A stretch of DNA of 64,000 nucleotides from an uncultured virus (IMG/VR IMGVR_UViG_3300029913_001576) (lineage: Duplodnaviria; Heunggongvirae; Uroviricota; Caudoviricetes): IMG/VR virus record IMGVR_UViG_3300029913_001576; one strand, 5' to 3'. A program made the translations under genes and the position numbers. Of the stretch, positions 608-61,619 are shown one piece after another; within the stretch, counting starts at the first letter, position 1, and each line of letters begins with the position of its first letter. Under the pieces are notes generated by a model. The model worked only from the letters and a program-made list of their open reading frames with translations, was not told the DNA's origin and did no database searches.

Positions 608-980
608 GGGGCAAGATGGCTGCGGAAAGTCTCGCTAGGGCGCCGCAAACGGGCAAGAAAGCCCGATAACGCCCTCAAATGGACCAAGTGGCTACTCCTC
701 CAGGCTTCGTCGATCAAATGCCCCAGCGGGGGGCGTGGAATGCCCCTGTGAGCGAGCCTGAGCCCTGTAGCTGGGACAATCAGGTCCTGTTGCCTGACGG
801 GAGGACAAGCTACGGGGTGTTCATGCCGGGAGCCGGATGGTACGTCCGGGACCGGTTCCTAGACGTTCTCGGGTGGCGGAAGCTGGACAACCGGCAGATC
901 ACCTGCGGGCGCGACCTGCGATCCCTCTAAGGAGGCCCCCCGGGGGGTGGGTAAACGGAGGGCGAAACGCCCACAGGCGT

Positions 981-1325
981 TCAAACCGGGTGCGAGTCCA
1001 GTTCCTCAATCGCCCTGCGGGCGTCGTGAGCGGACATCGTGGGGCGCACGTAACCGGCAGTCTGGATGCGGTTCCGGAACTCGGTCTTGACGGCGAGAAA
1101 CTTGTCAGCGCCCAGCATTTCAAGCTCGGAGGCAAAAAGGCCCTCCTGTGCGTGGTACCCCTCGACCTGCTCTAGCGCCCGGCGGTACTTCGCCGCCAGC
1201 TCGCGATTGCGCTCGCGGTACTTCTGGAGACGCTCGGAACTGCCCGCAGCGAGCCATGTGAAGAAGCCAGAGGCCAAGGCCGCAGCTACCGCGGAGCCCC
1301 CAGTGACAATGTTCGGGTCAATCAT
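981..1325 (-). CDS. small membrane-anchored coiled-coil protein
   Basis: N-terminal hydrophobic helix then charged helix; class-1 motif. Confidence 0.7.
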   Translation of the reverse strand: MIDPNIVTGGSAVAAALASGFFTWLAAGSSERLQKYRERNRELAAKYRRALEQVEGYHAQEGLFASELEMLGADKFLAVKTEFRNRIQTAGYVRPTMSAHDARRAIEELDSHPV

Positions 1326-2041
1326 ACCCCAAGATGGGAGGCGTCGGAATAGAGGTACAAATGCCGCAGGTCCCTCTCCCGCTCAACGGTCGCCGGAGAG
1401 AAGTCTCCCATGGCTGGCATGTCGAACCGCACGACCGCCTTTCCGTGACGCGTGCCGACGACCGTGCCGCAAAGGACCCCCGAGCGATTGAAGACGGGCG
1501 CAAGCCGAGGATCGCGGCACACAAAATGGACAAGGTTTCCGATGAGTGCGACCGGGTCGCCGGACGCAGGGACCATGTCGGCGCCGAACGTGTCGTGCGA
1601 ATGCCTGTCGGGCTGCATCAGGGCCTCGTCAGTGACAAGGATTGGGCTCGTGTAGTTCGAGAGGTTTTCGCCGCCATCGGCCTGCTGCACGACCTCTACG
1701 GGCAACGGATGCCCGTAGGTCGTGCCGTAGCGCTCATTGTAGCCCAGGAAGCGGATGCCGGTGAGGGCTTCCCATGCGCACGAGGTGGTGTGAAATGTGG
1801 ACTCGCGATTGATGAACCTCACGCGCCCGTCGATGGTGATGACCGCGCTCGACGCACTCATGCTGCTCCACAGCGTGAACCGGCGACCGGCGATGATAAC
1901 GTCATACCGGCTGTGCCAACCTGGGGCGGGGAAAGACGAAGGGACCTTGTGCCCGTTCAACCGCATCGTGCGGGTGTGCCATGCAAGCAGCCTTAGCGTC
2001 GGCACCGTGATCGTCCTGGGGCGGATGACTGTAGCGCTCAT
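1322..2041 (-). CDS. hypothetical protein
   Basis: 239 aa; CCCATAATTG-N4-ATG upstream; reads through the next class-1 motif. Confidence 0.65.
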   Translation of the reverse strand: MSATVIRPRTITVPTLRLLAWHTRTMRLNGHKVPSSFPAPGWHSRYDVIIAGRRFTLWSSMSASSAVITIDGRVRFINRESTFHTTSCAWEALTGIRFLGYNERYGTTYGHPLPVEVVQQADGGENLSNYTSPILVTDEALMQPDRHSHDTFGADMVPASGDPVALIGNLVHFVCRDPRLAPVFNRSGVLCGTVVGTRHGKAVVRFDMPAMGDFSPATVERERDLRHLYLYSDASHLGV

Positions 2042-2076
2042 GAGACAATTATGGGAGAACGGTGCGTGGATCGGGT

Positions 2077-2352
2077 TCAGGATGATACCCGTGGGCTGTC
2101 CTTGGAACGGGTTCCATTCCAGCGGTCGGCAAGTACCTGCCTCGCAAACTGCCAGTCCCTGCCGTCAAACCAGAAGTCTTGAACGAAGACCTTGCGAAAA
2201 ACTTCCCCGAACGAACAAACCCACTTCGCCAGGGCCACGATCAGCCCCCATGCAAGCGCGAGCAGGTAAACCACGGCGATCCCGATTGCGGCCAGAATAA
2301 CGAGTGCGCGGTGCCCCATAAGGGACGCATCGACTGAGGAAGTGGCGTGCAT
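2077..2352 (-). CDS. small membrane protein
   Basis: one TM stretch; class-1 motif. Confidence 0.6.
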   Translation of the reverse strand: MHATSSVDASLMGHRALVILAAIGIAVVYLLALAWGLIVALAKWVCSFGEVFRKVFVQDFWFDGRDWQFARQVLADRWNGTRSKDSPRVSS

Positions 2353-2355
2353 GAA

Positions 2356-2730
2356 TCAAGATGGCCTGACTGCGCGAAGCTCCAGAACGAGGGCGTCTCG
2401 GAGGAGGGCGCGGGCAACTTTGTCAGCCGCTCTCAAGACCCGCCGGCGGTTACCTGGGACCATAGGGGTCACGTCGGCCACGGGTTCCCACGAGGAATCG
2501 TCGCCAAGCCTGGAATATCGGGCTGCCTTCGCCTGCCTACCCACCTCGCCCTCCTCGGCCCCGTAGGCGTCGAGGTAAATCTGGGTGTGAGGGACCCTGA
2601 AAATCGAATGAAGCACGGCGCCATCGCTGCGAAGCGTCAGGCATTCGCCCGCCGGAGCCAAACGTGCAAGAGCCGCCGTAAGGGCGTGGCAATGGCCATT
2701 CGCGAAGTCGAACGTGAGGGAGGTATTCAC
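2356..2730 (-). CDS. hypothetical protein, possible Cys-His-Asp (papain-like) fold
   Basis: GTG start fixed by motif; FANGHCHALTAAL...VLHS...YLDAYG. Confidence 0.6.
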   Translation of the reverse strand: MNTSLTFDFANGHCHALTAALARLAPAGECLTLRSDGAVLHSIFRVPHTQIYLDAYGAEEGEVGRQAKAARYSRLGDDSSWEPVADVTPMVPGNRRRVLRAADKVARALLRDALVLELRAVRPS

Positions 2731-2755
2731 TCCCCAAGATGGCCGCCTCTCGGAA

Positions 2756-3124
2756 TCAGACCGCGAGAAGCAATTGGCCTGCCCGTTCGGGAACCTCTTC
2801 GCCGGGTGAGGAACTCCACATCGAGACACCGTGGCGAACCTTCGGGAGTAGCTCCAAAGCCTGTTCCACCGTCAAGGGCGTCATGTATGCCCGGTTATCT
2901 CGTGTCTGCGCCATGAGGTCGCCGTACGACTTGAACCGGGCGTGAGCCTCCGCGCTAAGCAGCAGGGATGCCGCCGTCTTGCTGGTATCGGCAGCGACGA
3001 CGCCCTCAATCCAGTCAGACTCCCCAACGACCTCGAACGAGACATGGAAGTAGCGTTCGCCGGAGCCAAGAATCGGAAGGCCGTCGGCGCGGTCAGTGCG
3101 GAAAGGGAGCGTCTTTGAGGGCAT
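2756..3124 (-). CDS. hypothetical protein
   Basis: start re-called to MPSKTLPF by class-1 motif. Confidence 0.65.
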   Translation of the reverse strand: MPSKTLPFRTDRADGLPILGSGERYFHVSFEVVGESDWIEGVVAADTSKTAASLLLSAEAHARFKSYGDLMAQTRDNRAYMTPLTVEQALELLPKVRHGVSMWSSSPGEEVPERAGQLLLAV

Positions 3125-3137
3125 GGCGCAAGATGGG

Positions 3138-3797
3138 TCACTCGTCACAGGTCCTCGAAACAAGGTTAAGGATACGCTGGAATAGCCCCACCCTGGGGGC
3201 GCTGTAGCGCAAGGGGTCAAGGGTCTCGTCCCAGTAGATGCCGTCGATCATCGGCGCAGAAGCGTCAAGCAACGCGGTAACCGCCGCGTCAAGCGTGTCG
3301 CAAAGCGCAACCGTGGTGCCTGGGTGTCGCTGACCCCAGTATGTGCAAAGCTGAACCGTGGGTGCCCAGCACAGGCACTCGCGCAAGCGGCCGCCCTCAA
3401 CAAGCTCGGCATGGGCCTCCGCCTTGGTGAGGTGCATCGTGAAACACGGTTCCCCGTCCTCGTTTGTCGCCCAACACTTGAATGCAAGGCGGCGCTCAAC
3501 TAACCCGCGAGCGGCGGCGATAGCCGTCAGTTGGTGCTTCGGGATGCTGTAGTAGTCCGCGAGGACGAACCCCCCGGGCTTAACGAGACTCCAAAGGGGG
3601 CGACCCCCAAGCTCTGCGATCATGAGCCAGGCGTCAGCAGTCTCCTCGTCGATGGAACAGGAAAGGCACGGCCCCTCATTGCTCGCGCCCCGCGTTGGCG
3701 CCAGAGGATTGTCGAGGAATCCGTAATGGAGCAGCGCTCCATCGTGGCAAACCGTCGGAATCTTCAGACCTGCTAGTGCAGGGGCGATAACGGGCAT
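3138..3797 (-). CDS. hypothetical protein (weak ART-like pattern)
   Basis: 219 aa; class-1 motif; LLHYG...CLSCS. Confidence 0.65.
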   Translation of the reverse strand: MPVIAPALAGLKIPTVCHDGALLHYGFLDNPLAPTRGASNEGPCLSCSIDEETADAWLMIAELGGRPLWSLVKPGGFVLADYYSIPKHQLTAIAAARGLVERRLAFKCWATNEDGEPCFTMHLTKAEAHAELVEGGRLRECLCWAPTVQLCTYWGQRHPGTTVALCDTLDAAVTALLDASAPMIDGIYWDETLDPLRYSAPRVGLFQRILNLVSRTCDE

Positions 3798-3824
3798 GGC
3801 GCAAGATGGCGCCTACTATGCCGC

Positions 3825-4111: not shown

Positions 4112-4327
4112 TCAGGCGGCCCTCCGCTGGTGCGGAAGCCGGTGGTGGGCGAAGTCGCGGATGCGCTTCTTCCATTCCGCGTCCTTGTCCTTCTTGCGCT
4201 GGGGACCGCCGAAAGCGCCCTTGGTCGTGGGGCGGGGACCGGACGGGCCGGACGGGCTGCGCCAGAACGCCTCAGAGCCGAAGAAGTGGTCGCAGGACGG
4301 GTACGCGCGAATGAGGTACGGGTTCAT
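4112..4327 (-). CDS. small basic hypothetical protein
   Basis: class-1 motif then ACG-ATG. Confidence 0.5.
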   Translation of the reverse strand: MNPYLIRAYPSCDHFFGSEAFWRSPSGPSGPRPTTKGAFGGPQRKKDKDAEWKKRIRDFAHHRLPHQRRAA

Positions 4328-4353
4328 CGTGAGACAAGATGGCGGAGGTTCGC

Positions 4354-6507: not shown

Positions 6508-6602
6508 GGCCTTCAATGTATCATGCCTTGTTACGTGTCGCAATGGGATACTCGCCTTGGTCGAAGTCGTTCATAGGCGCGTGGGCGTGGAGCAAGATGG
6601 GG

Positions 6603-7466: not shown

Positions 7467-7508
7467 GGGAGGGGGGCGGAACTACGGCAAGATGGTTCGG
7501 GCGAGAGG

Positions 7509-7775
7509 TCAGACGGGCTCGCAGGAGAGGAGGTCGTAATGGGGAACCGAAACCTCGCTCCGGGGCACACGCTTGCCGGAGAGCGTGAGCGATTCCTTCG
7601 CCGCGTTCCACGTGGCGACCACATCGGCGGCCACTGGAGCGGTGAACACGAAGCACTTCATGCCGAAGGTCCGGCGCTTCTCCGACCACTTGAAGATTCG
7701 CACGAAGGCCCGGGCCTGGCCCTTGATCTTCACGCGGTAGCGAGTGGCGGGTTTAAGGGGAAGGGTTGGGCTCAT
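7509..7775 (-). CDS. hypothetical protein
   Basis: 88 aa; class-1 motif 29 nt upstream. Confidence 0.6.
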   Translation of the reverse strand: MSPTLPLKPATRYRVKIKGQARAFVRIFKWSEKRRTFGMKCFVFTAPVAADVVATWNAAKESLTLSGKRVPRSEVSVPHYDLLSCEPV

Positions 7776-7832
7776 GGAGGAGGTGGTGGGGTTGCGTTCT
7801 GGAGCAAGATGGCGCGGCTAATGCCCCGCGCC

Positions 7833-10040: not shown

Positions 10041-10080
10041 GTAAGGCAAGATGGGAGGGCGCAGGAAGAGGGCCTGCGGG

Positions 10081-10410: not shown

Positions 10411-10721
10411 GTTTCAAGATGGAGCACCCGCACCCGGCGTAATCGAATCAGGCGGCGGCCAGTTAGTACCCGGCCAGTCGTAACCCGCGAAGCGGGCTCA
10501 GGAAGTAGCGGCCGCCTTGAGCGACTGTGCCTTTTGGCGTAACGCGGCCGTCTTCGGGTAGATCGTTACCTTCTCCAAGTGTACCCCCAAATGGCCCCCG
10601 CGAACGTGATAAAAGCCTGGGACGTTCTTGTCGCCTCGTCTGACAGGGAAGTGCTTCTTGAGCCACGAGTCGCGGACGGACGTGGAAGAGTGGACGATAA
10701 CGACGTTCTCAGGGGAGGTGT

Positions 10722-10976: not shown

Positions 10977-10989
10977 GGGTCAAGATGGG

Positions 10990-11328: not shown

Positions 11329-11628
11329 TCAAGATGGGGAGAGCACTGCCCTCCCGGCGTCGGTGATCCGTCGGGTGTCCCGAAACTCCTCGACAAAGGC
11401 GTTGGTGCGTTCGACCCACCCACGCCGCTCCATCGCACGGATGGTCTGCACGTCGGACCAGACTTCGCTGAGCGGTTGGCCAGGGGCATGGCTCGGTGAA
11501 CCGCGAGCATCAAGGGGAATGTCACCGGAGATCCAGAAGCCCCCTGGGATGCGACGCACCGTGCCATCCGCCGCAACCATCCGGCGAAGGGTGATTATTT
11601 GGGTCGGCGAGGGTTTCGGGGTAGCCAT
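11329..11628 (-). CDS. possible winged-helix protein
   Basis: TIRAMERRGWV...RITDAGR; stop lies inside the next motif. Confidence 0.6.
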   Translation of the reverse strand: MATPKPSPTQIITLRRMVAADGTVRRIPGGFWISGDIPLDARGSPSHAPGQPLSEVWSDVQTIRAMERRGWVERTNAFVEEFRDTRRITDAGRAVLSPS

Positions 11629-11871
11629 GCTCCAAGATGGGGAAGGCTCAACCTGTGGCCGGCGACAGTCGAGTCGCCTTTCGAGCCCGTTTTGCCTCAG
11701 CGGCGGCGATAGTCTCCGCTTCGATGCGCCGGCTTCTTGCCTCCTGCTCGGGCGAAGGTCTCGCATAGGGGCGGCGGCTCGATCCAGATGGGAAGGGATA
11801 GCCGCTGGCGGCAGCAAGACCTGCCATGACGGCAATCGCCACGACTCCTGGGCGGCGCTGGGTGTAAAGGC

Positions 11872-12258: not shown

Positions 12259-12271
12259 AACCCAAGATGGG

Positions 12272-12700: not shown

Positions 12701-12717
12701 GTGGGGCAAGATGGGGC

Positions 12718-13137: not shown

Positions 13138-13156
13138 ATAGGGCAAGATGGAGCGG

Positions 13157-14218: not shown

Positions 14219-14236
14219 GCCCCAAGATGGGGCTGA

Positions 14237-14629: not shown

Positions 14630-14646
14630 CGTGCGCCAAGATGGCC

Positions 14647-17076: not shown

Positions 17077-17153
17077 GAGCTAAGATGGGGGACCCTTTGG
17101 GGGACACGGTGCAGGGCAACAGATGCCGGCGACCCACCCTTACACCGACCCGA

Positions 17154-17600: not shown

Positions 17601-17615
17601 TGTGGGTCAAGATGG

Positions 17616-17921: not shown

Positions 17922-17945
17922 GCCCCAAGATGGGGCAGGAGCGCG

Positions 17946-18599: not shown

Positions 18600-18629
18600 G
18601 CGCCAAGATGGCGTCCCATGCGAGGAGGG

Positions 18630-19277: not shown

Positions 19278-19309
19278 ACCTGCAAGATGGAGCCCCGATG
19301 GCGTAATCG

Positions 19310-19618: not shown

Positions 19619-19633
19619 AACCAAGAATGGCGC

Positions 19634-20047: not shown

Positions 20048-20070
20048 GAGACAAGATGGGGGCGCTCCCC

Positions 20071-20571: not shown

Positions 20572-20591
20572 GATACAAGAATGGCGACCAC

Positions 20592-21248: not shown

Positions 21249-21272
21249 GGTCCAAGATGGACCTCGGCAAAC

Positions 21273-22382: not shown

Positions 22383-22403
22383 GGGAAGTAACCCAAGATG
22401 GGC

Positions 22404-22787: not shown

Positions 22788-22818
22788 AGTGCCCCAAGAT
22801 GGGCGTACGCCGGAGCGG

Positions 22819-23295: not shown

Positions 23296-23749
23296 GGGGC
23301 AAGATGGGTTGGCTCGACAGGATAACGATTTGGTCTGGGGCAAAGGCCACCCACCACACCTGGCTATCGGTACCCCCTTTGTGGAAGTCGCGGACATAGG
23401 CAATCCGCATGCCGTCGTGGCCAAGGCGCTTAATCCGACGCAAGAAGCTCTCGCATTCGCGGCGGCGGGCATCGCGGAGGAAATAGCTGAATTCTACGGC
23501 AGGCATGTCGTACGGCCGCTCGATCTGCACGCGAGCCGAGAGAATGAACGCGTCCGGACAGGTGCGCCTATAGTCGATCCACCTCCGCGCCCCGGCAACG
23601 GTTTCCGTGAAGTAGGCGCCCCACAGTGTGGTGGGATTATCGACGTTCGAGCCCAGTGTGGAGAAATCGAACCGCTCGAAGGATCGCCTGGTCCCGTGGT
23701 AAACGGGATCGGGGCAGAGTGTCGGGCAGCTACTGCTCGGCGAGTTCAC
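23282..23749 (-). CDS. ART-PolyVal-like ADP-ribosyltransferase
   Basis: VYHGT..F..F...GAYFT...A...GHDG...WVAFAPDQI; start uncertain. Confidence 0.7.
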   Translation of the reverse strand: MNSPSSSCPTLCPDPVYHGTRRSFERFDFSTLGSNVDNPTTLWGAYFTETVAGARRWIDYRRTCPDAFILSARVQIERPYDMPAVEFSYFLRDARRRECESFLRRIKRLGHDGMRIAYVRDFHKGGTDSQVWWVAFAPDQIVILSSQPILPHDGP

Positions 23750-23885: not shown

Positions 23886-23917
23886 AGGGCAAGATGGACG
23901 GTTCCGCCTGGACTCGA

Positions 23918-24643: not shown

Positions 24644-24661
24644 GTTAGTGGTAAGATGGGG

Positions 24662-25045: not shown

Positions 25046-25159
25046 GGTAAGTGAAGATGGTGCCGGGGAGATGGGCCGCTCTCAGGGGGCGCAGGGGGGT
25101 TAAGGCGTCCCGGAGAAGGCGTGCAGTGTCCTCTCCGACCGGCCCCCCATAGTTTTAGT

Positions 25160-26324: not shown

Positions 26325-26812
26325 GGGGGCGAGAGTGGATGCGATGGTAAGGCAAGATGGCGCGGCCCTGCATCGCCCCGATAGCGCACCCCATACTTGA
26401 AGAACGGCCAGACACGCACGTCGCGGAGATTCGGCCCTCGAAAAGAAGATTCATGAAAAACGCATCGTCGGGCGGTCAAACGCAACGTGGGGCAAGCACA
26501 GTGGGGAGCGCGGGGCGAACAGCCGTGCCGGAATTCCGCGGAACTGGATTGCAGGAACCGGGGCGCATCTCCCCTGGCTCCCTTCGAAACGGGATCATTT
26601 GTGTTCCTTCAGGCTCACGCTCTGGAAAAACGCACAGGTCGAAAGACCTCCTACGCCTGAGCGGATCGGGTCCGGGGCCGGAAGTTGTATGCTCCGGCCA
26701 CCGCAATCCGCGAGGGGCATCGAGTGTCGTGTGCCTGCGAGACATCGGGCGATTCGCCAACGACTAGCGGAGAGGAGCGTAAAACAGGGGTCCGCCGCCC
26801 CATAATTAGGAG

Positions 26813-27859: not shown

Positions 27860-27907
27860 GTCCCAAGATGGGCGGACCCGGCCCCGTGAATAATAATCCT
27901 CGAAACC

Positions 27908-28460: not shown

Positions 28461-28744
28461 GCCCCAAGATGGACCGACATCGGGACGGGTCGGAAACCAG
28501 CAAAGCCCCGCCCGCCTAGGGCCGGGCTCCGCCGCCCCCGCAGGCCGTCCGGCGAGGTTTCTGGGTGCCCTGGCTGACGGCTCCGAAAAAGGTCCCCCGT
28601 CTCTCCGGGAGGGGAGTTTTAAGGAGCGGGCATCAGGCGTGCTTGCGTCCAGCCTCCGTCATGTCCCGGGAGCTACCTCGGGACCGGCAGGCGGTCGCCA
28701 GCGTGAGCGGCTGCGCGCTCGGGCGTCGGTGCTGTGAGGGAGGG

Positions 28745-29469: not shown

Positions 29470-29483
29470 GGCTCAAGATGGGT

Positions 29484-30101: not shown

Positions 30102-30114
30102 GGACCAAGATGGC

Positions 30115-30351: not shown

Positions 30352-30514
30352 GAGGCAAGATGGGGTCGCGGGTACTTCGGGCGCCGGGTCTGGGCTTCGA
30401 GCGCGGCCGCGTAGTCGCACCAGAGGCGGCACACGAGGGCCTGGGGCTTTCCGAGGTGCTCGGCCCAAGCGATGGCGCTCCTGAGGCGGGTGATGTCGGC
30501 GTCCATGGCGTGCC

Positions 30515-30808: not shown

Positions 30809-30847
30809 GGGCTAAGATGGGGGGGTCCCCCGGGGGTGGGTGATCTT

Positions 30848-31315: not shown

Positions 31316-31341
31316 GCCCCAAGATGGGGCCTTTCCGCGGT

Positions 31342-32001: not shown

Positions 32002-32060
32002 GATCGGTGGTTCCTAAAAGTATGTGGAGGGGCGGTCCAAATATCCGCCAAGCAGGCGCC

Positions 32061-32357: not shown

Positions 32358-32529
32358 GCCCCAAGATGGGGTGGTGGACGGCGGTAACTAATTGGGGGCC
32401 AACGGATAGGGGTCCAATGTCAACTTTACCGGAAAACTTTACTTTCGCGGCGGGAAGGGTTGGCAGGCACCCGGAAGCACAGCGAGCGGGAGGCATTCGG
32501 TGGGTGCCGTCCCCCATACTTTAAGAACC

Positions 32530-35546: not shown

Positions 35547-35597
35547 ATAAGAAGTATGGGGGGCGCTGTGGGGTGAATTGATGCCGGCCGACGCATC

Positions 35598-36332: not shown

Positions 36333-36992
36333 GACGCGTGTTCTTAAAAGTATGGGGAGCTTCTCCTAGGGAATCGTTCAGAGGGTAGCCCAACCGGTTG
36401 CGACACGTCGTGTTGCGTTACTTGTTACAATCCGTTCGGTACACGCAGGTTCGGGCTTTTAGGAGCCGATGGCGCGTCGCTGCTTCATCCCCCAACAGGG
36501 CAAATGGCCGAAAAAATCCTCGGATTTTCCAGCGATTCTACGCATTGGGGGTGGGCTCCGCGGAGAGCTGCTGGTCCACAAGCGAGCCATTCACGCTCTG
36601 GCGCAGTTTGCGCGCTCGTAGGCGGAGCATCTCGATGTCCTCCCCGGGCAATCGGGTGACTTCAAACCAGTTCTCTGCGCCCTCCAGAATCGCGATGAGA
36701 TGGAGGGAGCGTGTGTGAGAAAGCGGGAGAGTGAACCTTCCGCTGTTAACCAATGAGGCTAAGGAAGCCCCGTCGTATAGTGTTTTCATGTGCGTAGCGT
36801 GACGGCTCTCGCTGGCGATGCGCTTCCCTGCACCTCAGCTCAAACCGTCCTAGCTAGCAGATGAGAACGAATGGTTTGGTCAGTCCTTCTTGTCCGGTCC
36901 CTTTCGGGTGGAAGCGGTGGAGGCGAAGGCGACCTTAAAGGAAGCAAAAAGCGCCAGAGGAGCAGTAGTCGAGAAAAAACGAGCCAGCGTCG

Positions 36993-40093: not shown

Positions 40094-40197
40094 GAGAAGA
40101 GCGCTCGGTTTAAGATGGTAGAGTGCTGGCGAGGGATTTCCCCAGATGGTGAAAAGGGAGGAATGGCGTATTGTCGTCCGTAAGGGGGCGTCGGCTC

Positions 40198-40935: not shown

Positions 40936-40988
40936 GATAGGAATTATGGGGGGATTCACATGGGGAATCGCGCAGGAGTGCCATCCAA

Positions 40989-41727: not shown

Positions 41728-41771
41728 GCGGCAAGATGGAGAATGGTCGCTAAGGCGTGTCCGATTTTACT

Positions 41772-42338: not shown

Positions 42339-42440
42339 AGCGCAAGATGGCGGCTGCCGGATGGCCGGTCGCATGCTCGGACTTGCTGAAGGCTCCTCAG
42401 GAGCGCCCTCCCCATACTTTTAAGGAGACACCTCCCATCC

Positions 42441-42866: not shown

Positions 42867-42869
42867 GGC

Positions 42870-46805: not shown

Positions 46806-47649
46806 ACTTAAAAGTATGGGGGATCTGACCCTGGGAAACCCCAGGGGAGAGGTTAACGGGGGCTGGGATCGTCGGCCTCTCTCCATCTCCACTGACGGCG
46901 CGTGGATTGATGCAGGTTCTTCCGGTGGAGGGCGATAAGCCGCTGAATAAGCGCTTCCGCATGGGCAACGCCCTGGGCTCTGGCTACTTCGACAACGTCG
47001 AAAGCCGTAAACGGCCCGCCCTTCATCCTGATGAGGCACGCCTCGATCTGGCCCAGCGTGACCTGTTCCGTGAAAACCCTCATGGCATTTAGAAGGCCCG
47101 CCAAACGAAACGTAAGGCTGAACCAAGCTCTGGGTGCGCCCACATCCAAGGCTCACCGTTCGGACCTGTGATGACGAACCGTTCGCCTCGGGTGGCAGAG
47201 CCACCAAAGAAGGCCCTGGCCTTGGTCTTGCAGTGGTCGCCACTGTTCCCTGGGCAAAGCGCTGTGTACCGTGTCCCAACGATCACCCAAAGCGTCCAAA
47301 TCAGAGGACGGTCATGGATTGCCAAAACCGTCGAGCGCAGCTCGGAAGCCGCTTGAGAGACGCGTTCAGGGAAGTTCATTTGAAGCGGGGGGCGTTTGGG
47401 TAGTGCATGCCATGTCCCCATGCATGGATTTCAGCGCGAAGGCGCCGGAGAACTGCATTGCGGGTTCGACCCGAAAGGCCGACGAAAGACTCGGCTGCAA
47501 TGTATTTTTTCACGAGCGCCAGGAGGTCCCGCGCCCCATCGCGATCCTCGGCTTGCGACCTCTTGACAGCGGTCAATCGCAGATAGGAGCCGTGCGGGCT
47601 CGGGGTGCGCGCAAAGTGGAGTTGAGCCATGGCCGGTGTTAGGTGTGTG

Positions 47650-47916: not shown

Positions 47917-48104
47917 ACGGACAAGATGGAGCGGACGGTGAAACCCCTTCCCTTCGGAGTGAGGGCGTATTCGCAGATTTACAGAAAATTAGAACATGCA
48001 GCGAGTGTCGCTCACGTGCGCTCAAATGAGCCCAGATGCGCTTAAATTCGCCCACGTGCGATTAGTGCCGGACTGTTGCAAGGCGCGCTGTCTCTGGAAG
48101 AATA

Positions 48105-49206: not shown

Positions 49207-49246
49207 GGGACAAGATGGGGTTTGGCAGGTTGCAAAGGCAGAGACT

Positions 49247-51205: not shown

Positions 51206-51409
51206 ACCTTTAAGTATGGGTTGTGGGTCAGGGGGAATCGCCCCTGGCCCCGCGTTAGCGCCGGCCGCGGTTCTTCAGGGCCATGCGGCGGCACGCGTTG
51301 GAAGTGCCGAACAGGCTGGGAGGATTTCCGAGCCCGTGAATGCGGGGGCTGTACGAACCAGAGAGGAACGGATTCATGGGGCAAGATGGGTGCCTCAGCT
51401 AGAGCGACC

Positions 51410-52057: not shown

Positions 52058-52308
52058 AAATCAAGATGGGAAACCGTCCTCGCGAACGACCGCGTCACCA
52101 GCCTCATCCACGTCGATCTGGATGCTTCCTCCGAAGACCGAGACTTTGCGGGCTTTGGACCGGCCAAGGGCAGCCCGAGCAATGCGGAGCCCCACCATCT
52201 TCCACTCCTTCACACTAACCTCCCGGGAGGATGAAGTAGTGACTCGGACCTGGAAGTTGAGCGTGTCGGGCATAATGGAGTGGTGTTTACGGGTTAAGAT
52301 GGCGCCGG

Positions 52309-53262: not shown

Positions 53263-53326
53263 GTGCCAAGATGGGAGCGGAGCCCTGGAAGGACGTTCCC
53301 CAAGGTTGCGGGCGTTCGAGGGTCCG

Positions 53327-53936: not shown

Positions 53937-53981
53937 GGAGTGGGCATGTTGAACCGCAACGCAAGATGGCTAGGCGACCCG

Positions 53982-54398: not shown

Positions 54399-54728
54399 TT
54401 AAGATGGGTTGGGGTTTGCGCCCGGAGGAAGCGGGTGAAGCTTGTCCACGGCCCGCATCGCAGCCAATGCCGACTTGAATCGCCTTGGGGCCGAAAGCCG
54501 GAAGGTGCGACCCCCTGGGCCGGTTCGCGTGCAGCCGACCTCGTGGGAAAGGCAACGCTCGCTCGGGTCAGGCTCCCAAGCCGTCCACATTCTCGCCCGT
54601 GGATTTGCAGGGTTTGGGTGTGGAGAGTTGGCGTCCCACTTGACCGCAGCTCCGTCAGACCGGCGCCATTGCAAGTCAACCACAACACAGGTCCATCCCG
54701 CCGGGCCGACTGGCGCTGTTGGGGGCAC
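54399..54728 (-). CDS. hypothetical protein
   Basis: stop lies inside the motif. Confidence 0.55.
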   Translation of the reverse strand: MPPTAPVGPAGWTCVVVDLQWRRSDGAAVKWDANSPHPNPANPRARMWTAWEPDPSERCLSHEVGCTRTGPGGRTFRLSAPRRFKSALAAMRAVDKLHPLPPGANPNPS

Positions 54729-55423: not shown

Positions 55424-55450
55424 AGGTGAAGATGGGGCAGGTTTCCGTGC

Positions 55451-56389: not shown

Positions 56390-57115
56390 TTAAGATGGGC
56401 AGCCCGGGAGCGTGTCCCACGGACGGTGCAAGCGCGGTCGCGTATCGAACTGCCCCGTCCAGCCCTCGGACATCCACGTTCCCTTCATGCCGGCCCGGAG
56501 ATGGTTGGCCTTCGCCGTAACGACGGGGTAAGCGGCGATGTCGCCCGCGAGCCTTTCCATTGTAGGAAGGGCGTCGTAGGCGAGGTGGAAGACATGTGAG
56601 CGCGAGCCGGGCTCGAACTCTGTGTCGCCGGTCGTGGCGTCGAAATTGGTCGGGCCGGTCGTGCAATAGACCGACACGAGGAGCATCGTGCCGTAGGCGT
56701 CGCGCTTAATGCCGACCCCCTCGGTCTTGCCACGCCCCTTGCTTTGAAGGATTCCCATATCCTCGTCGTGCCCCATGCCTCGCGCGAGGATCGGCGCGTA
56801 ATAACGGTCCACTACGTCGAGGGCCTCCTCCATGGCGTCGGACTGGATCTCTTCGGCCTTGGTGGACGGGCGCCACCCCTGGAACCAGCGGAACGCCCAA
56901 CCGCGCTTGCCGAACCGCTCGCGCTCGAACGCGGCGATGCGACTTGCGGACGTACGCATGCCCTCCATGAAGGCGCTGGCTAGTTCGTCGCGGTCGGCCT
57001 GGGTGAAGTAGACGGTCTCGGACGCACAGGGAAGGATTCCCGTGGCGCGCGTGGCCGCGATGACGCTCGCTGCGTCACTTGTCGGGAGTTCAAGCTGATT
57101 GGCGATGCAGCACAT
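56390..57115 (-). CDS. hypothetical protein
   Basis: class-1 motif; stop inside the next motif. Confidence 0.65.
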   Translation of the reverse strand: MCCIANQLELPTSDAASVIAATRATGILPCASETVYFTQADRDELASAFMEGMRTSASRIAAFERERFGKRGWAFRWFQGWRPSTKAEEIQSDAMEEALDVVDRYYAPILARGMGHDEDMGILQSKGRGKTEGVGIKRDAYGTMLLVSVYCTTGPTNFDATTGDTEFEPGSRSHVFHLAYDALPTMERLAGDIAAYPVVTAKANHLRAGMKGTWMSEGWTGQFDTRPRLHRPWDTLPGCPS

Positions 57116-57148
57116 GGCTCAAGATGGTCGAGCTTTGCACTCCTGGAA

Positions 57149-57454
57149 CTAGGCCGCCGCCAGCTCCTGGACCGGGTTATCCACGGCGAAACAGCCGGCG
57201 ACGATCTGGGTGAGCACCCAGCCCGTGCCGCTGCGATTGTCCGGGTTCTGGAACTTGAAGGCGCGGTCCGCTGCGTCAGTCACGATCACGGCAATCCCGT
57301 GGTCGGAATCCGTGAGCATTTTCCAACCCGTGAGCTTGTTGCGGGTGTCGCGGACGGGTGTTGCCCGCTCTGCCATGATCTGAAGCTCCAGCGTGACAGG
57401 AATCTCAACCGGGGCGGGATGCTCAAGGGACGGGGACGTGTGCGAGGCGTTCAT
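57149..57454 (-). CDS. hypothetical protein
   Basis: class-1 motif. Confidence 0.65.
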   Translation of the reverse strand: MNASHTSPSLEHPAPVEIPVTLELQIMAERATPVRDTRNKLTGWKMLTDSDHGIAVIVTDAADRAFKFQNPDNRSGTGWVLTQIVAGCFAVDNPVQELAAA

Positions 57455-57824
57455 GCCTCAAGATGGCAGAGCGAAAATGCGCCACCCACCCTACCAGCAC
57501 ACCTCGATCAAAAGGTCCCCCCAAACGGAAGCCGCCCCGCCAGCTTCGTTTAGGAGGGCTCCCAACTCCCACCCCCCCCAGACCAGATACCCACGCTCAC
57601 GGACATCAGCCAGATGCGTTGCGTGATTCGGCTAGATCCAACTCAACTCGGGCTGAATCTCGAAGATGTGCGTGCAGTCGTTCCCCAGTACCGATCCTCT
57701 GCACTGAGGTCTCCAACTATGGAGTCGTACTAGGGTTTGCCGAGGAACTCACCCACGACCCGTTGGACGGTTTTGTAGTCGATGGCGTTGACGGAGCGGG
57801 CCTCGCTAGGCCCGGTTAGCGGAC

Positions 57825-58139
57825 CTATTCGATCTCGACCGCGGTGTTGACGTAATCGAGGACCTCCAAGCCAGCGGCCTTCATATCGTGCCCCGTGGAG
57901 ACATCGGTGTAGGTCGATCCCTTGCCGCCGTGGTCCTTCTCGAACGCCAGAACCGGCTTGTAGATATTGCCTGCCTCGTCCTGAAGCCCGCAAACGATCC
58001 CCGAGGGGGCAACATAGGGCTTTAGACCCGTGGCGAGCACAGAGACTTCGAGACTAACGGTGATCGAGATTCGATTGGAGTTGGGCATTGTACCGGAGAG
58101 ATTCGGGGTTGACGGAAAAGGGATAGGTTCGTTGTTCAC
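57825..58139 (-). CDS. hypothetical protein
   Basis: GTG start fixed by motif. Confidence 0.6.
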   Translation of the reverse strand: MNNEPIPFPSTPNLSGTMPNSNRISITVSLEVSVLATGLKPYVAPSGIVCGLQDEAGNIYKPVLAFEKDHGGKGSTYTDVSTGHDMKAAGLEVLDYVNTAVEIE

Positions 58140-58158
58140 GGGGCAAGATGGCGAACGG

Positions 58159-58602
58159 TTACGCTGCCGCCTGGTCCGCGAGGCGGAAGCGCAAGACCGC
58201 GTCTGACTCGACCCTGATGTGCTTCGGCGGAACGACGGAGCTGTAGGCGCACTGCCCGCAAATGCGCAGGCTCTCGCGCCATGAGTATTGGTACCATGGG
58301 CGACCGCGCTCCAAGCGCTCACTCCCGAGGGCGTCTGGAAAGTCGCAATCATCCGGGCCTAGATCGCAGGACCAGAGGCTGCGGACTTCGACGGACAGGA
58401 GGACGGGCTTGCTGATCCGGTCGCCGTGGTGCCCGGCGTAGCCGATGGCCGTGTGCTTGTCGGATGCGAAATAGACCAACTCCGATGCACCCTCTGTCTT
58501 CCTGGGATCGAGGCCGTCCCTCAGGATCGAGGGCAAACGGGATTCGTCTGTCAGATGATAGAGGATCGTTACAGGCTTACGCCTGGGGCGGGTCGTCGGC
58601 AT
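58159..58602 (-). CDS. ART-fold protein (Tpt1/KptA- or DarT-like N-terminus)
   Basis: LYHLT...LPSILRDGL.P...VYFAS...VLLSV. Confidence 0.7.
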   Translation of the reverse strand: MPTTRPRRKPVTILYHLTDESRLPSILRDGLDPRKTEGASELVYFASDKHTAIGYAGHHGDRISKPVLLSVEVRSLWSCDLGPDDCDFPDALGSERLERGRPWYQYSWRESLRICGQCAYSSVVPPKHIRVESDAVLRFRLADQAAA

Positions 58603-58622: not shown

Positions 58623-59300
58623 TTAGGCTGCAACCGCTGTGGGTTCGACGGCGAAAGTTCCGCCCGGCACGACCAAGGGCATCAGCCACGTGTAGAGTGC
58701 GAGCCTCCCGAGGAGAGATTGGCGGGCCTTGTCCATCTCTGCCTGCGTGGAGCCACCTCGGACAACGAGCATGGCGGAATCGCGGTCGTGCGCAGCGAGG
58801 CTCTCGTGCGTACTGGCAATGCACCCCTCCACGTCGGAAATGGATGTGAACGCCTTCCACCCCGTGAGAAGCGTCGAAAGCGCTTCAGCGGTGATCCCCT
58901 CGGGAATCGTGACGAAAAGGTCAGGGTGGTACCTGCGAACCTTCTGCGGAATATCACGCCCTGCCTTCAGGGCATCCTCGACGATCTGGCGGTGCGTGAG
59001 CCACACCCGCGCCGCAAGCTCCTCCGAAATCAGATAGAAGTCTCCCGGGAACGACTTCGCCAGCGCCTCGGCCGCCATGTACTCCGGGCCAATACCCACC
59101 GTGGCCTTGCGTTTGGTCGGCGTCATCCGTCCGACACGAATCACCTGGCGCTGCACCCGGCTCAGGTAGCCGCCACCTTCCGCCCGGTAGAAGTAGAGAT
59201 TACCGGGAACCAGATCCTCAAACTTCTCGGCCCTGGCAGCCATGAGGAGCACCTCAAGGGCTTGGCCGTATTCGATGGGGGTCAGGGCGTAGGGGATCAT
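58623..59300 (-). CDS. hypothetical protein
   Basis: 225 aa; start overlaps upstream stop. Confidence 0.65.
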   Translation of the reverse strand: MIPYALTPIEYGQALEVLLMAARAEKFEDLVPGNLYFYRAEGGGYLSRVQRQVIRVGRMTPTKRKATVGIGPEYMAAEALAKSFPGDFYLISEELAARVWLTHRQIVEDALKAGRDIPQKVRRYHPDLFVTIPEGITAEALSTLLTGWKAFTSISDVEGCIASTHESLAAHDRDSAMLVVRGGSTQAEMDKARQSLLGRLALYTWLMPLVVPGGTFAVEPTAVAA

Positions 59301-59563
59301 TGCGGGATGTCGATTGCAGGGCGATAGCTCCCTGCAAGATGGCGGACGTAGGCGGCGTATTCGCGATCCTTGGGCTGCCAGTAGTCCGCGTGGTTATTGA
59401 GCCACCTTTGCATGGCCTCGCTGAGCACAAGGTCGCTGCGGACCTGTGCCAAGCGGGACTCCCACTCAGGCTTCAGCCTGGCGTCAATCGAGCCGATCTC
59501 TCGCACGGCGCTCTCAAGAATGTCGAGGAGCCGGAGGCGATGAACTTGTGCGGGCTCGCTCAC
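59297..59563 (-). CDS. hypothetical protein
   Basis: start/stop overlaps on both sides. Confidence 0.55.
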   Translation of the reverse strand: MSEPAQVHRLRLLDILESAVREIGSIDARLKPEWESRLAQVRSDLVLSEAMQRWLNNHADYWQPKDREYAAYVRHLAGSYRPAIDIPQ

Positions 59564-59865
59564 GGAGATACCGGGGTTGCCAGGGGCGGAAGGCTCGTTG
59601 CCTCACTGAATTCCTTGATCGACAGTCCTTCAATCGTAACTAGGTCGAGGACGTTGATCCGATAGGTCCAGGGACTGTTCCGGCTCCACTGCTCGCAGTG
59701 GACATTGAGCTGGTGGTCTTGGCCTTCATCAGGCTCGAACCGGATCGCCCCACCCCGGCGGCAAATTACGCGCCCGGAGGTATCCGGCCAGCGGTCTCCG
59801 CCGGCTCGCCTCGGGTACGGATTCACCGTCACCACCATGCCCGCCTTTATGTCCTTAGGCTTCAT
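59560..59865 (-). CDS. hypothetical protein
   Basis: MKPKDIKAG... Confidence 0.55.
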   Translation of the reverse strand: MKPKDIKAGMVVTVNPYPRRAGGDRWPDTSGRVICRRGGAIRFEPDEGQDHQLNVHCEQWSRNSPWTYRINVLDLVTIEGLSIKEFSEATSLPPLATPVSP

Positions 59866-60157
59866 GTTCGACGATGGTTTCCTCCCCGACGTATTCGCGT
59901 TCCAGAAAGTTAGGAAAGCGTTTCGAGATAGGGCGCATCTCGAACTCCACAATCTTCGCGTAGTGCCATTCAGCCGTCTTCGCTATCTCTTTCGCGAATT
60001 CGGTGGCCAGGTCCAGCGTGTCAAAGTCGCGATGACCATAGGAGGCTCCGTCCATGTCGGCATCCGAGGAGCCGTCGGCGTTGTTGATGATCGGGATGTT
60101 CTTGCACCACTCGACCTCAAAGCCATGCAAGCGCTTGCACTTTGAGCGGGGAATCAT
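59855..60157 (-). CDS. hypothetical protein
   Basis: start re-called by motif. Confidence 0.6.
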   Translation of the reverse strand: MIPRSKCKRLHGFEVEWCKNIPIINNADGSSDADMDGASYGHRDFDTLDLATEFAKEIAKTAEWHYAKIVEFEMRPISKRFPNFLEREYVGEETIVEHEA

Positions 60158-60886
60158 GCCCCAAGATGGTTCGCTTCCTGCCAACGCTTTCCCGCGGTCT
60201 CCGCCTCGCCAGCGGTGTTGAACTTGTGGCGCCCCTGGAACGTGATTGTGGACCCATCCTCGGAGTGGACATAGAAGTGGTTTCCGTCCGGCCACCTGGT
60301 GACCGTGAACTTGCGGTTGGTGAGGTCGGAGTCGGGAACCCACCTCCAACCGGCAAGCATGGCCCGCAGGACAACCCCGTAGGCTACGTCGCGGAGCACA
60401 CCGTCCCGGAAGAATCGGGGGCACCCAGCACCCATCCCGTAGAACCTCCACTTTGCGCCGGCGGGAGAAACAAGAGTGCCGTGCCCAAAGTAGTCCGGCC
60501 GCCCGGCAGTCTTGCTGGCGGCCCACCGGCTCCAGACGCGGTTGTAGGCGTGGTAGCCACAGTCGAACCGTGCAAGGATCGTGGTGGTAGCGCAGGGCAC
60601 GGGATTACCCCCTCCCCCAGGGGAGGGGTGATAAAGCGACGGGAAGGGATAAAGCGAAGGCAGCCTTTTGGGCTTTGTCTGCCCCTCCATTGCCCCACAT
60701 GGCCGTTTCTAGGGCACAGGCGGCCTTAATTCGGCCGAGACAGCCCTCCGCTACCTTGCGGGAAGGGGAAACAACGTAGCGGACCCTGGAAAAGCCGAGG
60801 ATGTCGCCTGCCCGGCCGGTCCCGTTTGGGGTGAAGTCGCCCAGGGGAGGCCCCTGGCGATTGACGGAAATGAAGGTCATGGGCGC

Positions 60887-61117
60887 CTAGACCGGGCTCA
60901 GGCGCTGCCGGAGGGCCGGAGTGTCGCCCTTTTGGGCTGAGCACTTGAGGGAGTCGGACTCGCCGGAGCACACTACCTGCCCATCGGCGACGAAATCGAC
61001 GGCGCGCACGTAGCCAGCGGAAACGACCTCGTCCCCGAGCATCTTCGCGATCTCGGCGTGGCTCTGGGCTTCCTCAAAGAGGACGAAGCCGCGGTTCTGA
61101 AAGCGGATGTACTTCAT
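60887..61117 (-). CDS. phage-type small protein
   Basis: MKYI...H...VSAG.V...GES.SL. Confidence 0.65.
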   Translation of the reverse strand: MKYIRFQNRGFVLFEEAQSHAEIAKMLGDEVVSAGYVRAVDFVADGQVVCSGESDSLKCSAQKGDTPALRQRLSPV

Positions 61118-61128
61118 AGCGGGCAGGC

Positions 61129-61599
61129 TCAGAGGCCCAAGCGCATCAGCATGCCGCCGTTACGAGCCTCGCCATGGTCCTCAAACCCGGCGCCGGCGTA
61201 GAAGTCCGCTGGGTCGCCCTCCTTCGTGGAATCGGTCGAGAGAGCGCACAGGTAAATGGCAGGAACCCTCCACTCGTGGGCAAAGGCAATGAGGCGAGCC
61301 AGGAGCGCGCGGCCCACTCCTTGGTGCCGGAACCTCTTCTCCACCTCGACCCCCGTGATGCAGGCCACCTGCACGTCCTCGTCAACGGTGCCTCCGTCGA
61401 GCGGGGCATCGTAGCTGGCGGGCTCGAAGCTAGCCGCTGTGCCACGCCGGATCTCGGCGGTTGCGATCTCCTTGCCGGCCGCGTCCAAGATCCGAACAGA
61501 GAGGGAGTGACTTGTCGTGGAAGTCTCCACCCGGGAACCGGGAAGCAGGCGCGCGAGGGCGTCCTCGAAGGCAGTCTCGATGCAAGAGGGTGCGAGCAT
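61129..61599 (-). CDS. GNAT acetyltransferase
   Basis: VEVEKRFRHQGVGRALL...FYAGAGF. Confidence 0.85.
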   Translation of the reverse strand: MLAPSCIETAFEDALARLLPGSRVETSTTSHSLSVRILDAAGKEIATAEIRRGTAASFEPASYDAPLDGGTVDEDVQVACITGVEVEKRFRHQGVGRALLARLIAFAHEWRVPAIYLCALSTDSTKEGDPADFYAGAGFEDHGEARNGGMLMRLGL

Positions 61600-61619
61600 G
61601 GAGCAAGATGGCTTAGTGG

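Follow-up and report, generated by a model that had tools for sequence, protein, structure and literature searches.

CCATCTT boxes fused to start codons: candidate leaderless -10-type promoters in a large phage-like element from peat

The DNA analysed here is a stretch of 64,000 nucleotides (nt), referred to as the window, from the uncultured virus record IMGVR_UViG_3300029913_001576, a large, uncultivated, phage-like element found in peat. Throughout the window, a short box, CCATCTT followed mostly by G, stands directly ahead of genes on one strand and in most copies keeps a fixed distance to the start codon. We consider it probable that this box is a -10-type promoter occupying positions -12 to -5, that the A of the ATG is the transcription start, and that about three quarters of the genes are thereby expressed from leaderless mRNAs. 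The element measures at least 158 kb, its protein of 620 amino acids (aa) being recorded in the protein database on DNA of up to 158,410 bp, and the readable part comprises 64 kb of this length. Its G+C content is 62%.

There are 54 exact matches to the 8-mer CCATCTTG: the minus (coding) strand has 52 of them and the plus strand the other 2, neither of which is followed by a start codon. The outermost minus-strand copies lie at 612-619 and 61604-61611, and boxes occur at a density of about one per 1.0-1.2 kb. By chance, a mean of 2.06 copies and a maximum of 7 were obtained in 100 dinucleotide-preserving shuffles. Shortened to the 7-mer CCATCTT, the box is present in 62 minus-strand copies versus 6 on the plus strand, and every gene headed by the 8-mer form (class I) lies on the minus strand. 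The original prediction, made from the letters alone, had counted about 60 same-strand copies of the 8-mer; the array is real, but that figure fits the 7-mer, while the exact 8-mer accounts for 52.

Seven of the eight box positions are invariant. Position 8 is the only one that tolerates change at real gene heads, carrying G and then A or C. Single changes at positions 1-7 did not exceed their frequency on the opposite strand and did not precede starts, with the exception of a T-to-G change at position 4 before the open reading frame (ORF) 62763-63674. A position matrix of the 52 copies showed at most 0.13 bit per column across the 40 columns upstream of the box, and these uninformative columns leave no -35 element. 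Downstream, the matrix contains three G+C-rich positions, C or T in 48 of 52 copies, A (44) or G (6), and then T and G. Only five paralogous pairs were identified among the approximately 100 proteins of the window. Given flanks without information and so few paralogues, the copies must have been kept separately in unrelated contexts, and duplicated cassette DNA was ruled out as their source.

The register between box and start codon is precise. A start codon stands exactly 4 nt downstream in 36 of the 52 8-mers (32 ATG, 4 GTG), and at this place only ATG or GTG was observed (36/36), never TTG or CTG. For the 7-mer, ATG or GTG follows after exactly 5 nt in 41 of 62 copies; this agrees exactly with the 41 copies originally reported, made up of the 36 8-mers and five variants in which CCATCTT is followed by A or C. 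Counted from the A of the ATG (+1), the box occupies -12 to -5. The remaining 8-mers have their ATG at 5 nt (2 copies), 6 nt (3), 7 nt (4) or 11-34 nt (7). Within 4-34 nt of the box, an ORF of at least 50 aa was found for 49 of the 52 copies, with a median length of 125 aa. The arrangement by which leaderless genes are recognised, a -10-type box ending 5-8 nt before the ATG or GTG that opens the ORF, was thus present for 36/52 8-mers and 41/62 7-mers.

In the 16 8-mers without ATG or GTG at the fixed place, that position is occupied by A in 12, always after C or T, by G in 2, and by T in 2, where the ATG is shifted by one base. The earlier observation that a purine is kept there in most displaced copies was therefore confirmed. 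A pyrimidine-A step in 12 of 16 copies compares with a background of 0.083 (binomial P = 1.3e-10), and since the step is kept when the ATG moves, it is tied to the box and not to the start codon. A pyrimidine at -1 with a purine at +1 typically marks the start sites of multisubunit RNA polymerases, and A being far commoner than G at +1 is a classic initiation preference.

The conventional expression signals were also looked for. A Shine-Dalgarno (SD)-like core (GGAG, GAGG or AGGA) was present at -18 to -5 in 6 of 92 genes, compared with 11.5% of random positions. Together with the flat upstream columns of the matrix, this upholds the earlier statement that neither an SD site nor a conserved -35 is present. 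Stretches of 20 kb contained 0, 1 and 2 two-hexamer promoters of the sigma-70 type, where shuffles gave about 3.5, which shows no enrichment, and terminator-like hairpins (11, 12 and 17) were at or below the shuffled level. No tRNA genes or Rfam families were found in the window. Several other identities for the box were rejected: a sigma-54 promoter lacks its -24 GG; a halophilic archaeal virus is excluded by a median pI of 6.8 and the lack of a TATA-like element at -26; and polar motifs of the Chi or KOPS kind have no register to start codons. In a full-text literature search for the 8-mer with "promoter" or "bacteriophage", only eukaryotic sites and primers were found among the matches listed; a eukaryotic YY1/initiator site was discarded, as the gene organisation here is prokaryotic.

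The surroundings of the boxes are compact. The preceding stop codon lies 0-28 nt ahead of the box in 30 of 52 copies and overlaps or lies beyond it in 5 more, and in 3 of 52 cases the upstream ORF ends past the predicted +1. Intergenic gaps measure about 20 nt. Counted from the predicted +1, the initial 40 nt of the genes have far weaker folding than windows inside them (-5.1 vs -10.3 kcal/mol, P = 1.7e-12), and the predicted 5' ends are unstructured and accessible.

In the proposed mechanism, CCATCTT(G) would be the core of a -10-type promoter of this element, acting without a -35. Its hexamer CATCTT would keep A at "-11" and T at "-7", the bases flipped out by sigma-type factors, and would be followed by a G+C-rich 5-nt spacer ending in a pyrimidine; the purine found 5 nt past the box would be the transcription start. 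In the 36/52 copies where an ATG or GTG begins with that purine, the mRNA would carry no leader, and its 5'-terminal start codon would be translated without an SD site; leaders from the remaining copies would be 1 to about 30 nt long. Passages of PMC4633059 report that in mycobacteria an ATG or GTG standing at the 5' end is enough for translation, and this is the requirement for start codons in that place. Transcripts would probably run on into downstream genes, because the gaps are so short and no terminators were seen. The only well-translated cistrons would then be those at the 5' end or those starting over a preceding stop, which would account for about three quarters of the genes carrying a box of their own. 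With no SD sites, gaps of this size and no other conserved element, no other way to express these genes is visible.

A different explanation for boxes placed directly before start codons, in a single orientation and without SD sites, is a translation signal in the mRNA. The box would recruit ribosomes by pairing with rRNA or through a host or element protein, and the many boxes found 0-28 nt after an upstream stop suit such a role. A precedent exists in the Start Associated Sequences (SAS) of Cluster K mycobacteriophages, a 13-bp GGGATAGGAGCCC-like sequence with an SD-like GGAG core, present in 11-19 copies, rare in the host genome and proposed to act in translation, as described in part of PMC3203893. 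SAS resembles the present box in being a short asymmetric repeat that lies in one orientation directly upstream of the starts of many unrelated genes in one phage. It differs in that the box has no SD-like core, occurs in 52-62 copies and carries a start-site-like pyrimidine-A step that does not depend on the ATG. In copies with the ATG 6-34 nt away, this step stays with the box (12/16), which is not predicted for a ribosome-binding signal. Furthermore, the box has no complementarity to the anti-SD; its only match to 16S rRNA, judged by eye against the E. coli sequence, is 6 bp including a G-U pair, in a buried stretch. The exclusive use of ATG and GTG at the fixed place (36/36) likewise follows the rule for 5'-terminal starts (PMC4633059, in part). 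Taken with these points, a non-SD translation signal seems decidedly unlikely.

Leaderless mRNAs might also arise by processing. Here, few promoters, for instance the class II boxes described below, would produce a long polycistronic RNA, and an endoribonuclease would recognise CCAUCUUG and cut 4 nt downstream, between the pyrimidine and A. The box-headed genes do lie on one strand over 64 kb with terminator-like hairpins not above chance, and a fixed Y|A at a fixed distance from an invariant 8-mer suits a ruler-type nuclease as well as a start site. RNA-directed enzyme domains are also encoded in the element, namely HAD_SAK_2 twice and a weak Tpt1-like match, and MazF in E. coli makes leaderless mRNA by cutting just before AUG. 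Against this, the cut would precede the stop of the upstream ORF in 3 of 52 cases, leaving an mRNA without a stop codon, and no nuclease family was matched in the window. The pyrimidine at -1, the purine at +1 and the excess of A over G are those of classic initiation. Positions -12 to -5 also coincide with the place of known -10-only phage promoters (PMC1524935 and PMC7598289, each in part). We therefore regard a processing site as unlikely.

Boxes of further classes also stand ahead of genes. A self-trained codon model called 92 minus-strand and 8 plus-strand genes, and after hand correction of four mis-called starts, about 70 of the 92 minus-strand genes have a box within 70 nt. About half of the other 22 start no more than 20 nt from, or overlapping, the preceding stop, an arrangement that suits translational coupling. 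Class Ib, in which CCATCTT is followed by A or C (CCATCTTA, CCATCTTC), heads 9 genes, 5 of them in exact register, and the class III box CCATTCTTG heads 2. The class II box CCCATAMTT precedes about 10 minus-strand genes, including the largest in 33-52 kb, usually with 5-6 nt to the ATG, and heads four plus-strand genes as well (starts 25160, 26813, 32530 and 42441). Its 15-mer form CCCCATACTTTTAAG occurs in four exact copies, one of which is on the plus strand (Table 1). GATTCCC lies exactly 14 nt upstream in 3 of the 8 listed minus-strand copies of class II; it resembles a -35 element. Since class II boxes thus come with an upstream element of their own and occur on both strands, the element has at least two types of promoter-like box. 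With about 70 of 92 minus-strand genes boxed and at least two box classes, the earlier description of each gene as a self-contained cassette was overstated. On our reading, all classes can be written as CCATnnT or CCATnnnT, in which A and T would match A-11 and T-7 of the -10 hexamer.

Base composition varies along the array. G+C content is raised at 28-32 kb (0.675), and several small box-headed ORFs between 27000 and 32000 have a third-position G+C of 0.81-0.89, unlike the 33-52 kb region of large genes headed by class II boxes (G+C 0.58-0.60). The 27000-32000 region may be a different module or expression class.

Whether the box is read by the host was examined by counting box-ATG patterns in bacterial genomes. 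The pattern CCATCTTGNNNNATG, with 32 copies in the window, occurs at most 7 times per genome in 301 genomes of the phylum of an Opitutaceae metagenome-assembled genome (MAG) and 0-5 times per genome in 25 genomes of about 20 other lineages. The pattern CCATCTTGNNNCATG, with 27 copies in the window, reached at most 2 per genome in 121 Acidobacteriota and at most 3 in 81 Planctomycetota. A class II pattern, CCCATAMTT-N5-6-ATG, occurred 0-6 times per genome in 15 genomes and gave no host signal. The original prediction had raised the possibility that the motif is equally common before ordinary host genes; box-ATG was not enriched in any of the 528 sampled bacterial genomes, and the box therefore does not look like a general host promoter in those samples.

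A general promoter of an unusual host would nevertheless be a coherent explanation, the box being the -10 element of the housekeeping sigma in a lineage with leaderless expression, which the element would mimic. A -10 box a few bases before the ORF is common in Deinococcus-Thermus and Actinobacteria, as reported in passages of PMC12340547 and PMC4633059. In addition, the best genome matches of the element's IS1595 transposase are only 53-68% identical and lie in different phyla. The genome counts speak against it, with a maximum of 7 copies per genome versus 32 in 64 kb and enrichment in 0 of 528 genomes. Moreover, housekeeping -10 elements are degenerate, whereas 7 of 8 positions are invariant here, and the second box class has its own upstream element and is used on both strands. 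This explanation is consequently regarded as improbable. The invariant positions, together with the lack of the pattern in the sampled genomes, favour a dedicated factor or RNA polymerase, probably encoded by the element, over a host housekeeping sigma.

Several points weigh against the -10-type promoter reading. The hexamer CATCTT carries C at -12, a place taken by T in -10 hexamers, and a 5-nt spacer to +1 is at the short end of the range of bacterial RNA polymerases. No sigma factor, gp55/gp33-like protein or RNA polymerase was detected in the 64-kb window with Pfam (also with E up to 0.5), PHROGs or NCBIfam, and the D.DGD motif is absent from all six frames of the window. A search for element-encoded sigma or RNA polymerase genes, as originally suggested, thus returned none among 64 kb of at least 158 kb. 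A narrow host clade may use the box generally, the sample consisting of bacterial genomes only. No relative in which the link between box and start could be compared was found in IMG/VR or, for the 652-aa protein, among 5.8 billion proteins. One peat metatranscriptome run contained 6% of the sampled words of 24000-33999, as contigs and thus uninformative on starts; on 20001-40000 it yielded five contig pieces of 151-222 nt, possibly DNA carry-over, with no start information, and so speaks neither for nor against the promoter. Overall, the sequence-level predictions examined for the promoter and leaderless reading held (a fixed pyrimidine-purine step, ATG or GTG only, neither SD nor -35, unstructured 5' ends), while the reader of the box was not found in the window.

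An array of regulator sites was also considered. The box would then be an operator or "stoperator"-like site at which a DNA-binding protein of the element shuts off or times genes, and it would not be a promoter. Many short asymmetric sites in one orientation to transcription, in short gaps, are reminiscent of the stoperators of Cluster A mycobacteriophages, which are contrasted with SAS in part of PMC3203893. Stoperators, however, have no fixed register to start codons, whereas 41 of 62 boxes here are in exact register. Gaps of about 20 nt and the lack of any other conserved element leave no room for a separate promoter or ribosome-binding site, and genes without SD sites would be left without visible means of expression. 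A regulator array is accordingly judged highly unlikely.

The -10-type promoter reading can be compared with several known systems. In T4, the late promoter TATAAATA occupies -13 to -6 and lacks a -35; it is recognised by gp55, a phage sigma, as described in passages of PMC1524935. The likeness lies in a short conserved 8-bp box at -10 (here -12 to -5), without a -35 and in many copies per genome. T4 late promoters are served by a dedicated factor, with gp33 and the gp45 clamp, instead of the host primary sigma, and a dedicated reader would be expected here as well. The box sequence is unrelated, however, being CCATCTTG in a genome of 62% G+C and different from TATAAATA, and no gp55/gp33-like gene was seen in the 64 kb. 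The density of boxes is also far higher here, with the start codon at the predicted +1, whereas T4 late mRNAs have leaders with SD sites.

The early promoters of jumbo phages such as phiKZ and AR9, used by a virion multisubunit RNA polymerase, have about 10 conserved nt centred at -10 and no -35. They precede operons made up of small early genes, the genomes being larger than 150-200 kb, and were found by bioinformatics (PMC7598289, in part). The conserved nucleotides at -10 without a -35 are shared with the present box, and the window also looks like a takeover or counter-defence region. In contrast, the motifs of those phages are AT-rich, their genomes carry recognisable split beta/beta' genes, none of which were seen in this 64 kb, and leaderless starts are not described for them in the excerpted text of PMC7598289.

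The middle and late genes of the Thermus phage phiYS40 are leaderless (PMC3594737, in part), and leaderless expression from a -10 box adjoining the ORF is established in Deinococcus according to passages of PMC12340547. In phiYS40, Deinococcus-Thermus and Actinobacteria, as proposed here, only a few bases separate the -10 from the ORF, and the start codon stands at or beside the 5' end of the mRNA without an SD site. Their boxes follow a degenerate TANNNT and are recognised by sigma A of the host, whereas the present box is an invariant CCATCTT with the first T replaced by C and with the A and last T kept. The original claim that no described element has this organisation was thus too strong, since the T4 late, jumbo-phage early, phiYS40 and Deinococcus systems are of the same kind. 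Promoters with only a -10 read by dedicated factors in phages, and leaderless mRNAs, are already known. The box nevertheless fits the sequence criteria of no named family, whether TATAAATA, TANNNT, the AT-rich boxes of jumbo phages or SAS. New here are CCATCTT with C at "-12", the fact that most copies are fused to a start codon, a density of about 70 boxes for 92 genes, the near-absence of SD sites and the lack of relatives.

A broader model, judged somewhat less likely than not, can also be put forward. Nearly every visible gene would be a one-gene leaderless unit fired from the new-specificity CCATCTT (C at "-12") by an unseen element-encoded sigma-like factor or RNA polymerase. The second class, CCCCATACTTTTAAG, would serve another time class on both strands, and SD-independent, monocistronic-style expression would be the rule for a whole bacterial virus.

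The boxes and the ORFs that follow them are listed in Table 1.

Table 1. Boxes identified in the window, with the start codon and ORF that follow each. Class I denotes CCATCTTG; "C-A kept" and "T-A kept" refer to the dinucleotide at N4/N5 after the box; distances are nt from box to start codon.
Box	Position	Strand	Remark	Start codon	Distance (nt)	Downstream ORF
Class I variant CCAGCTTG	63681..63688	-		ATG	6	62763-63674 (303 aa)
Class II CCCATACTT (in CCCCATACTTTTAAG)	62745..62753	-		ATG	46	62177-62698, thioredoxin-like
Class I	61604..61611	-		ATG	4	61129-61599, GNAT
Class I	60162..60169	-	Upstream ORF ends past predicted +1	ATG	4	59855-60157
Class I	59335..59342	-	G at N5	ATG	34	58623-59300
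Class I	58144..58151	-		GTG	4	57825-58139
Class I	57459..57466	-		ATG	4	57149-57454
Class I	57120..57127	-		ATG	4	56390-57115
Class Ib CCATCTTA	56391..56398	-		ATG	4	55451-56386, Mom-like
Class Ib CCATCTTC	55428..55435	-		ATG	4	54740-55423
Class Ib CCATCTTA	54400..54407	-		ATG	4	53982-54395
Class I	53962..53969	-	G at N5	ATG	25	53640-53936
Class I	53267..53274	-		ATG	4	52309-53262, N6 DNA methylase
Class Ib CCATCTTA	52295..52302	-		ATG	21	52061-52273
Class I	52062..52069	-		ATG	4	51410-52057
Class I	51382..51389	-		ATG	4	51255-51377, short (40 aa)
Class II CCCATACTT	51212..51220	-	GATTCCC 14 nt upstream	ATG	6	49247-51205, large paralogue
Class I	49211..49218	-		ATG	4	48913-49206
Class I	47922..47929	-		ATG	5	47650-47916
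Class II (CCCCATACTTTTAAG)	46812..46820	-		ATG	6	44811-46805, large paralogue
Class II (CCCCATACTTTTAAG)	42411..42419	+		ATG	21	42441-42866(+)
Class I	42343..42350	-		ATG	4	41916-42338
Class I	41732..41739	-		ATG	4	41407-41727
Class II CCCATAATT	40942..40950	-	GATTCCC 14 nt upstream	ATG	6	40198-40935
Class Ib CCATCTTA	40111..40118	-		ATG	17	37868-40093 (741 aa)
Class II (CCCCATACTTTTAAG)	36348..36356	-	GATTCCC 14 nt upstream	ATG	15	35598-36332
Class II CCCATACTT	35552..35560	-		ATG	5	34938-35546
Class II	32513..32521	+		ATG	8	32530-32976(+)
Class I	32362..32369	-		ATG	4	32061-32357
Class II-like CACATACTT	32018..32026	-		ATG	16	31342-32001
Class I	31320..31327	-		ATG	4	30848-31315
Class Ib CCATCTTA	30813..30820	-		ATG	4	30515-30808
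Class I	30356..30363	-		ATG	4	30115-30351
Class I	30106..30113	-		ATG	4	29484-30101
Class I	29474..29481	-		ATG	4	29212-29469
Class I	28465..28472	-		ATG	4	28260-28460
Class I	27864..27871	-		ATG	4	27341-27859
Class II CCCATAATT	26799..26807	+		ATG	5	26813-27331(+)
Class I	26353..26360	-	T-A kept	ATG	28	25929-26324
Class II-like CCCATAGTT	25146..25154	+		ATG	5	25160-25543(+)
Class Ib CCATCTTC	25053..25060	-		ATG	7	24662-25045
Class Ib CCATCTTA	24652..24659	-		ATG	8	23918-24643
Class I	23890..23897	-		ATG	4	23730-23885 (51 aa)
Class I	23300..23307	-	Within end of ART-PolyVal ORF	ATG	4	22819-23295, HAD_SAK_2
Class I	22795..22802	-	C-A kept	ATG	7	22404-22787
Class I	22394..22401	-	T-A kept	ATG	11	21273-22382
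Class I	21253..21260	-		GTG	4	20592-21248
Class III CCATTCTTG	20576..20584	-		ATG	4	20071-20571, HAD_SAK_2
Class I	20052..20059	-		ATG	4	19634-20047
Class III CCATTCTTG	19622..19630	-		ATG	3	19310-19618
Class I	19283..19290	-		ATG	5	18630-19277
Class I	18604..18611	-		ATG	4	17946-18599
Class I	17926..17933	-		GTG	4	17616-17921
Class I	17608..17615	-	C-A kept	ATG	7	17154-17600
Class Ib CCATCTTA	17081..17088	-		ATG	4	14647-17076 (809 aa), DndC/PAPS-reductase-like
Class I	14637..14644	-	C-A kept	ATG	7	14237-14629
Class I	14223..14230	-		ATG	4	13157-14218
Class I	13144..13151	-	T-A kept	ATG	6	12718-13137
Class I	12707..12714	-	C-A kept	ATG	6	12272-12700
Class I	12263..12270	-		ATG	4	11872-12258
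Class I	11633..11640	-		ATG	4	11329-11628
Class I	11330..11337	-		ATG	4	10990-11325
Class I	10981..10988	-		ATG	4	10722-10976
Class I	10415..10422	-		ATG	4	10081-10410
Class I	10047..10054	-	T-A kept	ATG	6	7833-10040 (735 aa), NHL-repeat/Big_7
Class I	7805..7812	-	C-A kept	ATG	29	7509-7775
Class I	7488..7495	-	T-A kept	ATG	21	6603-7466
Class I	6593..6600	-	C-A kept			17-aa ORF only; DNA methyltransferase 5983-6507 starts ~85 nt downstream
Class I	4335..4342	-	C-A kept	ATG	7	4112-4327
Class I	3802..3809	-		ATG	4	3138-3797
Class I	3129..3136	-		ATG	4	2756-3124
Class I	2735..2742	-		GTG	4	2356-2730
Class I	2357..2364	-		ATG	4	2077-2352
Class II CCCATAATT	2047..2055	-		ATG	5	1322-2041
Class I	1330..1337	-	Upstream ORF ends past predicted +1	ATG	4	981-1325
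Class I	612..619	-		ATG	4	374-607
Class II CCCATAATT	329..337	-		ATG	6	To window end (1-322)

Few proteins of the window matched known families. These include a Mom-like protein (55451-56386(-)), two N6-adenine methylases (5983-6507(-) and 52309-53262(-)), a DndC/PAPS-reductase-like domain in the 809-aa protein (14647-17076(-)), an ART-PolyVal ADP-ribosyltransferase (23282-23749(-)), two HAD_SAK_2 proteins (20071-20571(-) and 22819-23295(-)), GNATs, a thioredoxin-like protein and an NHL-propeller/Big_7 protein. Additionally, a weak match to the Tpt1/KptA RNA 2'-phosphotransferase was seen at 58159-58602(-), far under the curated cut-offs (NCBIfam E = 1e-4, Pfam E = 0.02). The DNA/RNA-modification and counter-defence genes among these, from the Mom-like to the two HAD_SAK_2 proteins, form a cluster that suggests the early or takeover region of a large phage. 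As no structural genes were recognised among the window proteins by family matching, the element may instead be conjugative and the gene cluster its leading region.

The paralogues 44811-46805(-) and 49247-51205(-), of 664 and 652 aa, are 44% identical, and each has a class II box 6 nt ahead of its ATG. Neither matched a family, and among 5.8 billion proteins the 652-aa protein finds only itself and its paralogue in the window. Their conserved C-terminal 60 residues appear toxin-like (RelE/ParE-like) by eye. A 385-aa protein of the window gave no usable match in the ESM Atlas, and its model had a pLDDT of 0.26.

An IS1595-family transposase (5083-5961(+); DDE_Tnp_IS1595 E = 1e-39, with a zinc ribbon) is encoded opposite to the one-strand array, and its position inside the array indicates that the element harbours an insertion sequence. 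Clear terminal inverted repeats were not found around it. Its best genome matches were 58% to an Opitutaceae MAG, 53% to a Planctomycetes MAG and, over part of its length, 68% to a Gemmatimonadales MAG. These identities, spread over several phyla, are too distant to name a host.

The same DNA was observed at 99.96-100% identity in five separate metagenome contigs (window 39250-61109), one of them of 90 kb, indicating that the element is nearly clonal across samples. No relatives were found in the metagenome scan beyond the element itself, nor in IMG/VR by a scan with the 809-aa protein. Scans of IMG/VR with box patterns gave 43 loci for the 15-mer of box, GGGC and ATG, none with a dense box array; 22 loci for a two-box pattern, all repeat-containing coding DNA or chance; and 62 loci for the class II 15-mer, none related. 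Phages gave no megablast match to 1-25000 or 33000-52000, and plasmids none to 1-25000. Searches of four proteins against phages by tblastn gave nothing or, at 24-51% identity, only promiscuous relatives of the Mom and methylase kinds. On the coding (minus) strand, C outnumbers G (32.3% and 29.2%), and the plus-strand GC skew is positive in all sixteen 4-kb bins, which is unusual for a strand bearing nearly all genes.

The box is also of use in annotation: it settles which start codon is the true one in more than 60 ORFan genes, and a composition-based caller had mis-started several of these. The array also provides a clean test case for separating promoters from RNA-processing sites in metatranscriptomes. 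If the promoter is confirmed, this would be the densest case known to us of one promoter per gene combined with leaderless translation in a bacterial mobile element. Measuring 13 nt from the box to the AUG, it would represent a compact and orthogonal module for expression, and it would point to a factor whose -10 specificity is unusual. In that case, Shine-Dalgarno sites would be shown to be dispensable for the gene set of a whole phage.

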